A stretch of DNA of 64,000 bases from a virus (taxonomy: Duplodnaviria; Caudoviricetes), in the IMG/VR virus record IMGVR_UViG_3300031994_000043, positions 1-64,000 of that record. One strand, written 5' to 3'. Shown here in pieces: positions 26,933 to 27,143 of the stretch. The position numbers and the translations under genes are program-made. The notes beneath the pieces are model-generated. The model made no database searches. It was not told the DNA's origin and was given only the letters and a program-made list of their open reading frames with translations. Numbering within the stretch: the first letter of the stretch is position 1; each line of letters starts with the position of its first letter.

Positions 26933-26965
26933 AAATAAAAAACCGCAACATTTTTATGTCGCGGT
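26933..26965 (-). terminator. Attenuator terminator upstream of tRNA array 1
   Basis: ACCGCGACAT/ATGTTGCGGT plus U-tract; overlaps antiterminator. Confidence 0.75.
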
Positions 26966-26997
26966 ATCCTGTTCTCCTTCTAGAAAGAAATAATTAC

Positions 26998-27072
26998 TTA
27001 CACAACAGAAATACCGCTATCCTCCAAATAGTGTTTAGGCAATCTGATTTGTGTATTAATTATTTGATTCAT
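26998..27072 (-). CDS. Leader peptide 1 (MNQIINTQIRLPKHYLEDSGISVV)
   Basis: Leaderless ATG 4 nt after TATATATA; 3' codons form antiterminator strand. Confidence 0.7.
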   Translation of the reverse strand: MNQIINTQIRLPKHYLEDSGISVV

Positions 27073-27143
27073 ATTGTATATATAATAAAATTTTTAGAAA
27101 TTTTGACCCATTCGTACTTTTCTGTATAATTCTTTACTTAGTT

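Follow-up and report, generated by a model that had tools for sequence, protein, structure and literature searches.

The closest described counterparts of the element studied here are the attenuators of the amino-acid operons and of pheST (trpL, hisL, pheL, thrL, ilvL and pheM). In these leaders, as in ours, a short promoter-proximal open reading frame (ORF) is joined to an RNA segment that can choose between two partners, the antiterminator overlaps the 5' arm of the terminator, and a ribosome finishing the ORF covers the antiterminator arm, an early stall within the ORF favouring read-through. A related arrangement, in which a stall in the leader ORF switches off a terminator, is reported for the antibiotic-responsive attenuators bmrCD and mef/mel of Firmicutes (PMC4191407, PMC4335068), and in T-box riboswitches it is the status of a tRNA that tunes read-through by competition between terminator and antiterminator. 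Phage tRNA genes are usually treated as constitutive cargo, and full-text searches of the literature retrieved no account, for phages or any other system, of tRNA genes controlled by leader-peptide attenuation. Here we analyse a leader (leader 1) that precedes a tRNA array in a T4-like phage. A translation-sensitive terminator, that is, a ribosome-mediated attenuator of the trp/his kind placed on a phage late promoter, is a plausible reading of this locus and in our view the best single explanation for it, although we hold it tentatively, with confidence a little short of even.

The stretch of DNA analysed (the window) comprises the initial 64 kb of an IMG/VR record that measures 109 kb and has a CheckV completeness of about one third. 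The record encodes a gp55-like late sigma factor (match to phrog_234, E 1.9e-5) as well as T4-type major head, portal and tape-measure-like proteins, and its relatives were found in gut assemblies of cattle, sheep and pig, on contigs of up to 389 kb; it therefore appears to derive from a large T4-like phage of the gut or rumen. At the DNA level, megablast and blastn searches of the phage database and curated phage collections returned nothing similar. Relatives were fetched through the upstream neighbour of the leader, a gene for a 150-aa protein that ends at 27144 on the minus strand, on which all nearby genes lie, and the sampling was therefore independent of the leader itself. The 31 related loci, which represent 16 distinct sequences with the window's own included, came from ENA, Logan and JGI assemblies, scans of IMG/VR yielding one (L018) or none. 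Throughout these relatives the stretch from the late promoter to the early promoters is approximately 88-97% identical (mostly 88-95%), and the leader region retains its identity (about 90% or more) even when that of the neighbouring protein is down to 59% and also when an extra gene of 171-175 aa has been inserted upstream. In L006, L011-L013, L016 and L017 this extra gene follows directly on the 150-aa gene and directly precedes the conserved leader region. Further genes of the DUF559 type (some of them unannotated), of approximately 170-250 aa, occupy varying downstream sites among or near the tRNAs of the relatives, and a homing endonuclease of the GIY-YIG type is found within the window's own array.

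The leader begins with the word TTATATATACAATAT (27071-27085, minus strand), whose core TATATATA at 27084-27077 is followed after 4 nt by an ATG at 27072. The T4 late promoter is TATAAATA at positions -13 to -6 (PMC1524935); the core in the window agrees with it at seven of eight positions, and in one relative the canonical TATAAATA takes its place (8/8). TATA[A/T]ATA occurs in 38 copies in the 109 kb, of which about 20 are followed at 15-42 nt by the start codon of a long ORF; most of these ORFs have a Shine-Dalgarno sequence, and the major head, portal and tape-measure genes are among them. TTATATATA by itself is not enriched within the window. The promoter of the head gene consists of TATAAATA together with a downstream hexamer identical to that of the leader. 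With a core near -10, the use of the motif before structural genes and a gp55-type sigma factor encoded in the same record, the upstream element of the leader is, as judged from its sequence, a late promoter. The exact 15-mer TTATATATACAATAT has a single other copy in the 109-kb record, located ahead of the leader that belongs to tRNA array 2 (35974-35960), which would indicate that both tRNA leaders are marked by the special TATATATA variant. A promoter-like site on the plus strand (27103-27130) was also considered and was rejected, its -10 element not being conserved.

The motif is separated from the start codon by either 4 nt or 15-42 nt, which makes two classes of spacing, and four transcription units, the leader included, show the geometry of motif, 4 nt and ATG. 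The remaining three are long genes of 202, 809 and 262 aa without a Shine-Dalgarno sequence, which begin 4 nt after a TATAAATA core (window 50559-50573 on the plus strand, and genome 65963-65949 and 94066-94052 on the minus strand). Because these three genes share the arrangement, a leaderless late mRNA beginning at the ATG of the leader is plausible, and the A of this ATG (27072) is the likely transcription start. The initial annotation had called the ORF leaderless; the lack of a Shine-Dalgarno sequence and the geometry common to the three long genes speak for this, whereas strict T4 numbering would put the start 1 nt beyond that A. The positions of the TATAAATA promoters indicate that several late genes of this phage may be leaderless, and leaderless late mRNAs seem to be one of its regular features. 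Among the matches listed in our literature searches there was no paper tying T4-type late promoters to leaderless genes.

The ORF itself comprises 24 codons and a TAA (27072-26998, minus strand, with the stop at 27000-26998) and encodes the peptide MNQIINTQIRLPKHYLEDSGISVV. It is open in all 16 distinct sequences, in which ATG, frame and stop position are kept, and in the one lineage where TAA has become TAG the stop stays in the same position. No indel occurs within the 75 nt of the ORF, compared with five sites of insertion or deletion in the next stretch of 60 nt. Among the first 12 codons, every codon position has its share of variable sites (3, 4 and 5), so that the peptides start with MNQI, MNLI, MKRM or MMRM, and this distribution of the variable sites is the reason to regard the frame rather than the peptide as conserved. 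The C-terminal 12 residues are invariant, whereas variation is seen in codons 1-12 and in the non-coding DNA around the ORF, and a block of 40 nt (26999-27038, minus strand) is invariant in all relatives, synonymous sites included. What is conserved, on the evidence of these alignments, is an open frame and an RNA sequence and not a peptide. The peptide has no family match in Pfam, and no Rfam family, T-box included, comes near its gathering score with the element (the best reaches 24.7 bits against a threshold of 99). On the opposite strand a 57-aa ORF (26956-27129) was discarded, given that indels of 1 nt break its frame in relatives.

The leader RNA can be folded into the terminator and one long hairpin, present in both the minimum free energy (MFE) structure and the RNAalifold consensus, in which the 5' half of the ORF (27065-27038; region 1, codons 3-12) forms the 5' arm and pairs with its 3' end (27015-26988), leaving in the apical loop a Shine-Dalgarno-like GGAGGA (27025-27020) that belongs to the invariant block. 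The fold is more stable than those of shuffled sequences (z = -3.4), and 98.5% of the cells of the alignment are paired, the four pairs changed on one side all remaining standard pairs. Changes on both sides affect one terminal pair only, which is unpaired in 7 of the 16 sequences, and the covariation term of RNAalifold is -0.33; covariation support is thus weak, as the relatives are close. The same invariant block holds region 2 (27017-27004, codons 19-23), the 5' arm of the antiterminator, whose alternative partners are region 1 and region 3 (26973-26961), the 3' arm of the antiterminator. The intrinsic terminator (26965-26933) begins 32 nt after the stop of the ORF and has a GC-rich stem of 10 bp (26965-26956 with 26951-26942), an AAAA loop, a TTTTTT run and an energy of -14 kcal/mol; among relatives its stem is invariant and its loop differs in length and sequence.

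Regions 2 and 3 can form a helix of 13 bp with one bulged U, at -16.8 to -18.0 kcal/mol in the window and -16 to -19 kcal/mol across relatives, compared with -14 kcal/mol for the terminator. In the lineage whose region 3 differs by a G-to-A substitution and an insertion of 1 nt, this region still makes 13 bp with the invariant region 2 (-18.7 kcal/mol). Region 3 shares ACCGC with the 5' arm of the terminator, that is, 5 of the 10 nt of this arm. The initial annotation had placed the ORF 4 nt behind TATATATA and had proposed both the pairing of 27017-27004 with 26973-26961 and its overlap with the terminator, and these features, as well as every coordinate given there, were confirmed. When the upstream 88 nt were shuffled with conservation of dinucleotides, 9 of 2000 shuffles paired equally well. 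As an empirical control we scored 37 terminator-like hairpins from the whole 109-kb record for an upstream competitor of their 5' flank: the top score went to the terminator of leader 1 (-19.2), followed by the terminator of leader 2 (-16.1), and the remaining 35 lay for the most part between about -5 and -10. The pairing of regions 2 and 3 is therefore beyond chance. The hairpin ranking third (38279-38249) is an ordinary gene-end terminator that owes its score to a GGTGGTT repeat and was set aside.

Whether such a geometry can switch depends on when the RNA folds. In the full-length RNA at equilibrium, folded with ribosome masks, the terminator forms with a probability of 0.97 at any ribosome position, and a purely thermodynamic switch is excluded since the terminator appears in every masked state. 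Only a kinetic mechanism remains, in which, according to the model, the 2:3 pairing would have to be trapped. The terminator of the trp leader is likewise favoured thermodynamically, and there the outcome is kinetic. We therefore folded the nascent RNA as it would stand before the 3' arm of the terminator exists: the probability of the 2:3 helix is approximately 1 with the ribosomal A-site at codons 1-14 and 0 with the A-site at codons 16-25, the stop included. In this in silico model of the nascent RNA, then, the antiterminator would exclude the terminator and would itself be excluded once a ribosome has reached the last codons. In nascent RNA free of ribosomes the probability of the 2:3 helix ranges from 0.01 to 1.0 among relatives and exceeds 0.75 in 11 of the 16, so that the hairpin of regions 1 and 2 is unreliable as a default-off element. 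A weakness of the modelled switch is that the 2:3 helix would mask half of the terminator 5' arm, though this half contributes the GC pairs adjoining the T-run. Contigs from sheep-gut metatranscriptomes cover the region (25000-29000), giving neither ends nor strand and possibly reflecting DNA carry-over; some of them, again maybe derived from DNA, bridge the terminator (26771-27407 and 26783-27043) and the start of the ORF (27040-27265). One further contig of the RNA libraries (run X2) connects position 26930 directly with 26669, so that both early promoters are missing from it, and this junction may come from a genome variant, from template switching or from an assembly artefact caused by a repeat.

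Downstream of the terminator the minus strand carries two early promoters of the sigma70 type, P1 (26871-26899) and P2 (26686-26714), each reading TTGACA-17-TATATT with 11 of 12 positions matched, P1 being conserved and the core of P2 invariant in relatives. They are followed by tRNA array 1 (26521-19550, minus strand), which starts with tRNA-Lys at 26521, is interspersed with homing-endonuclease genes and contains Lys-TTT, Pro-TGG, Tyr-GTA, Arg-TCT, Gln-TTG, Leu-TAA, an atypical Gly-TCC, Leu-CAA, Asn-GTT, Thr-TGT and Ser-ACT. The tRNA-like Gly (TCC; 23998-24071, minus strand) is detected by Rfam and by ARAGORN in relaxed mode and is missed by default ARAGORN. Just 3' of P2, a conserved small hairpin ATTGGTT-CGTGA-AACCAAT (26651-26670, minus strand) lies towards the 5' end of the tRNA precursor. 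Ten promoter-like sites with identical hexamers and spacing (TTGACA-17-TATATT) are found on the minus strand between 19000 and 37000 of the window, and such a uniform class of early promoters suggests a host with canonical sigma70/sigmaA recognition. Two strong and conserved promoters thus lie between the terminator of leader 1 and the genes that it would control, in agreement with the reservation in the initial annotation that sigma70-like promoters downstream might restrict control to the late phase. Their presence makes array 1 independent of read-through, and any control would be confined to transcripts from the late promoter or to read-through transcripts.

We compared the codons of the leader with array 1, taking the ten canonical tRNAs called by ARAGORN and, as background, 28,031 codons from 101 long ORFs, of which 38% are read by array 1; generous decoding lets U34 read all codons of four-codon boxes and lets A34 read C. 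The leader is not exceptional in how many array-1 codons it has: strict counting gives 11 of 23 (P 0.23 against codon usage), generous wobble with ATA included gives 13 of 23 (P 0.10), and against shuffles of the leader's own nucleotides P is 0.18-0.32. Simple enrichment of array-1 codons is consequently rejected (P 0.10-0.32), the count being at chance level because the A-rich composition demanded by the hairpin accounts for it. Breadth, the number of distinct array-1 tRNAs that have at least one codon in the leader, gives another picture, with 8 of 10 under strict decoding (P 0.08-0.12) and all 10 under generous decoding (P 0.002-0.007); the 14 codons from 2 to 15 alone, which approximate the sensing window marked by the nascent-RNA model (A-site at codons 1-14), give a strict coverage of 8 of 10 (P 0.0045-0.0075). 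Strict coverage equals 8 in 15 of the 16 sequences notwithstanding the N-terminal changes, and each leader covers the tRNAs of the other array less than expected. The array-1 codon share differs little between late and early genome regions (0.35 and 0.38-0.40, respectively). The idea in the initial annotation that the leader codons mirror array 1 hence survives as breadth (P from 0.002 to about 0.1) and not as count, and it is suggestive and dependent on the decoding rules chosen. The codon list on which that idea was built is correct as read. Among the box matches that it assigned, CCT with Pro(TGG) and AGC with Ser(ACT) require non-standard wobble, and the tRNA-Ile(TAT) that it counted among array 1 was found there neither by ARAGORN, in default or relaxed mode, nor by Rfam.

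A second leader of comparable build (leader 2; 35974-35776, minus strand) lies upstream of tRNA array 2. Behind the promoter 15-mer that it has in common with leader 1, it has a 5' UTR of 22 nt with a Shine-Dalgarno sequence, an ORF of 37 codons (35831-35944) and a terminator (35776-35805), and in its MFE fold the 3' end of the ORF pairs with the 5' arm of the terminator. No promoter lies in the 10 nt that separate the end of this terminator from tRNA-Glu (35766), with which array 2 opens, and all 17 tRNAs that ARAGORN calls in array 2 would therefore be transcribed through it. Array 2 being expressible only past its terminator, the terminator must be conditional. The codons of leader 2 match array 2 at 28 of 36 positions (P 3e-4 in a binomial test, 0.008 against gene windows, and under 1 in 3000 against shuffles). 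With a terminator that must be conditional, attenuation is the natural reading of leader 2, and it would lend credit to the same reading of leader 1; the proposal of the initial annotation that two leaders unrelated in sequence follow one logic is borne out by their architecture and by the promoter word common to both. The 37-aa peptide of leader 2 shows a sub-threshold Pfam match to TnaC (PF08053; E 0.0066; 16.8 bits, cutoff 25) with the common pattern H-I-C-x4-W-F-x-I-D, from which nascent-peptide arrest follows as an alternative to codon sensing at leader 2. Between the two tRNA arrays there is in addition a full-length match to the cow-rumen-2 RNA (RF02947; 33969-34073, minus strand; 105 bits, gathering score 66), which assigns a metagenomic orphan RNA motif to a T4-like phage.

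Placing these observations into a model of attenuation, we propose that late in infection a gp55-type polymerase would start at the A of the ATG (27072) and yield a leaderless RNA. A fast ribosome finishing the 24 codons would cover region 2 and leave region 3 free, so that the terminator could form and the product would be an RNA of approximately 138 nt ending at about 26935. Were the ribosome absent, late or held somewhere in about the first 14 codons, pairing of region 2 with region 3 would follow as soon as the latter is made, hiding the GC-rich foot of the terminator, and the polymerase would pass the early promoters into array 1. The signal would be slow decoding of the first 15 codons, in which 8 of the 10 canonical array-1 tRNAs are represented, and read-through upon slow decoding would act as a negative feedback on the late tRNA supply; the capacity for translation in general is an equally good candidate for what is sensed. 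The attenuator reading is favoured by the ranking of both leader terminators at the top of the 37 for an upstream competitor, by leader 2 as a second instance whose terminator is necessarily conditional, and by the preservation of ATG, frame and stop in 16 of 16 sequences. It is weakened by P1 and P2, which bypass a terminator that may simply close the upstream operon, and also by the victory of the terminator at equilibrium, by the unenriched codon count and by the failure to find a tRNA-Ile(TAT). The invariant apical loop with GGAGGA is unexplained by the attenuator model, and it fits an RNA with a further role, which might be ribosome loading or pausing on region 2, or an action in trans.

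The operon-closing function just mentioned leads to a different account of the locus, in which the terminator is constitutive, serves to end the early operon that includes the 150-aa gene and to shield the promoters of the tRNAs, the ORF is a tiny late gene for a trans-acting peptide of 24 aa, and the competing pairing has no regulatory role. The strength of the terminator, which forms at equilibrium in every modelled condition, agrees well with this, and so do the two promoters that the tRNAs have of their own and the invariance of the C-terminal 12 residues. T4-like phages encode many very small proteins, which also favours the tiny gene. What this account leaves without a reason is that the competing pairing is the strongest of 37 and that the second strongest stands at the other tRNA leader; moreover the peptide has no family match, the invariant part of its coding sequence is unchanged at synonymous sites too and its N-terminal half is free to change at all codon positions, a pattern that points to constraint at the RNA level. 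We regard this combination as rather unlikely.

Constraint on the RNA can also be taken as a sign that the locus makes an untranslated structured late small RNA of approximately 138 nt, in which a long 5' hairpin exposing GGAGGA, an AU-rich linker and the terminator follow one another, with targets reached by base pairing, through a protein or at the ribosome, and in which the open frame is incidental. Many bacterial sRNAs have a similar layout of hairpin, linker and terminator, and this general resemblance counts for the proposal, as do the stability of the fold relative to shuffles, the paired alignment cells with their four one-sided changes that keep standard pairs, and the 40-nt block that is invariant at the nucleotide level. 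Action in trans has moreover a precedent among attenuator RNAs themselves, as is reported for rnTrpL (PMC6614838). An incidental frame, however, would hardly have its ATG placed exactly as in the three long genes of leaderless geometry, a stop kept in place despite the change of TAA to TAG, and zero indels in 75 nt next to several in the following 60 nt; the element has no match to an Rfam family either, and we consider the small RNA improbable. A chance arrangement, an AT-rich spacer with a short ORF beside a terminator, would draw on the abundance of short ORFs and TATA-like words in DNA of 35% G+C, on the lack of enrichment of TTATATATA in the window and on a codon count at chance level. 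It has to face a region approximately 90% identical or more where the neighbouring protein is only 59% identical, the invariant 40-nt block, a pairing that ranks first of 37 and a 15-mer common to the other leader, and in view of such conservation a product of chance seems unlikely, to the point that we give it hardly any credence.

If the attenuator reading of leader 1 is true, the phage would adjust its tRNA output to decoding, and genes commonly regarded as cargo would be under a translation-coupled switch by which the phage measures decoding capacity. The logic of attenuation would thereby be extended from amino-acid supply to tRNA supply, and there would be a direct handle on why phages carry particular sets of tRNAs. 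A more specific proposal, which we consider doubtful, is that leader 1, together with leader 2, is an attenuator of a roster type, leader 1 being a leaderless late test gene whose first 15 codons sample nearly every tRNA of the array behind it. If this were so, the late top-up of tRNAs would be granted only when any one tRNA of the array limits decoding.

Set against the systems described at the outset, leader 1 departs from the trpL type in what it precedes and in how it would sense: trpL-type attenuators control enzymes and have a run of one regulatory codon, whereas leader 1 precedes tRNAs and has single codons for many of them. It is also unlike them in its probably leaderless mRNA, in its phage late promoter, in the two promoters before the genes and in its hairpin of regions 1 and 2, which is not dominant in most relatives, so that the untranslated state would read through. 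The bmrCD and mef/mel leaders are reported to sense drug-bound ribosomes and to control transporters (PMC4191407, PMC4335068), and the peptide of leader 1 has no recognisable arrest motif. T-boxes differ in binding the uncharged tRNA directly, in having no ORF, in their length of 200-300 nt and in the synthetase and amino-acid genes that they serve. Other likenesses lie on the side of initiation, where leader 1 has, as T4 late promoters do (gp55/gp33/gp45), an 8-bp AT motif near -10 and no -35 element, of the kind that stands before structural genes, and, as in the leaderless cI mRNA of lambda, an AUG at the predicted 5' end. Leader 2 differs from leader 1 by its UTR with a Shine-Dalgarno sequence, its 37 codons, its clearly non-random codon match and the lack of a promoter between terminator and tRNAs, and the two sequences are unrelated; yet the two leaders are alike in the promoter 15-mer, the short ORF, the complementarity between the 3' end of this ORF and the 5' arm of the terminator, and the tRNAs that follow downstream.
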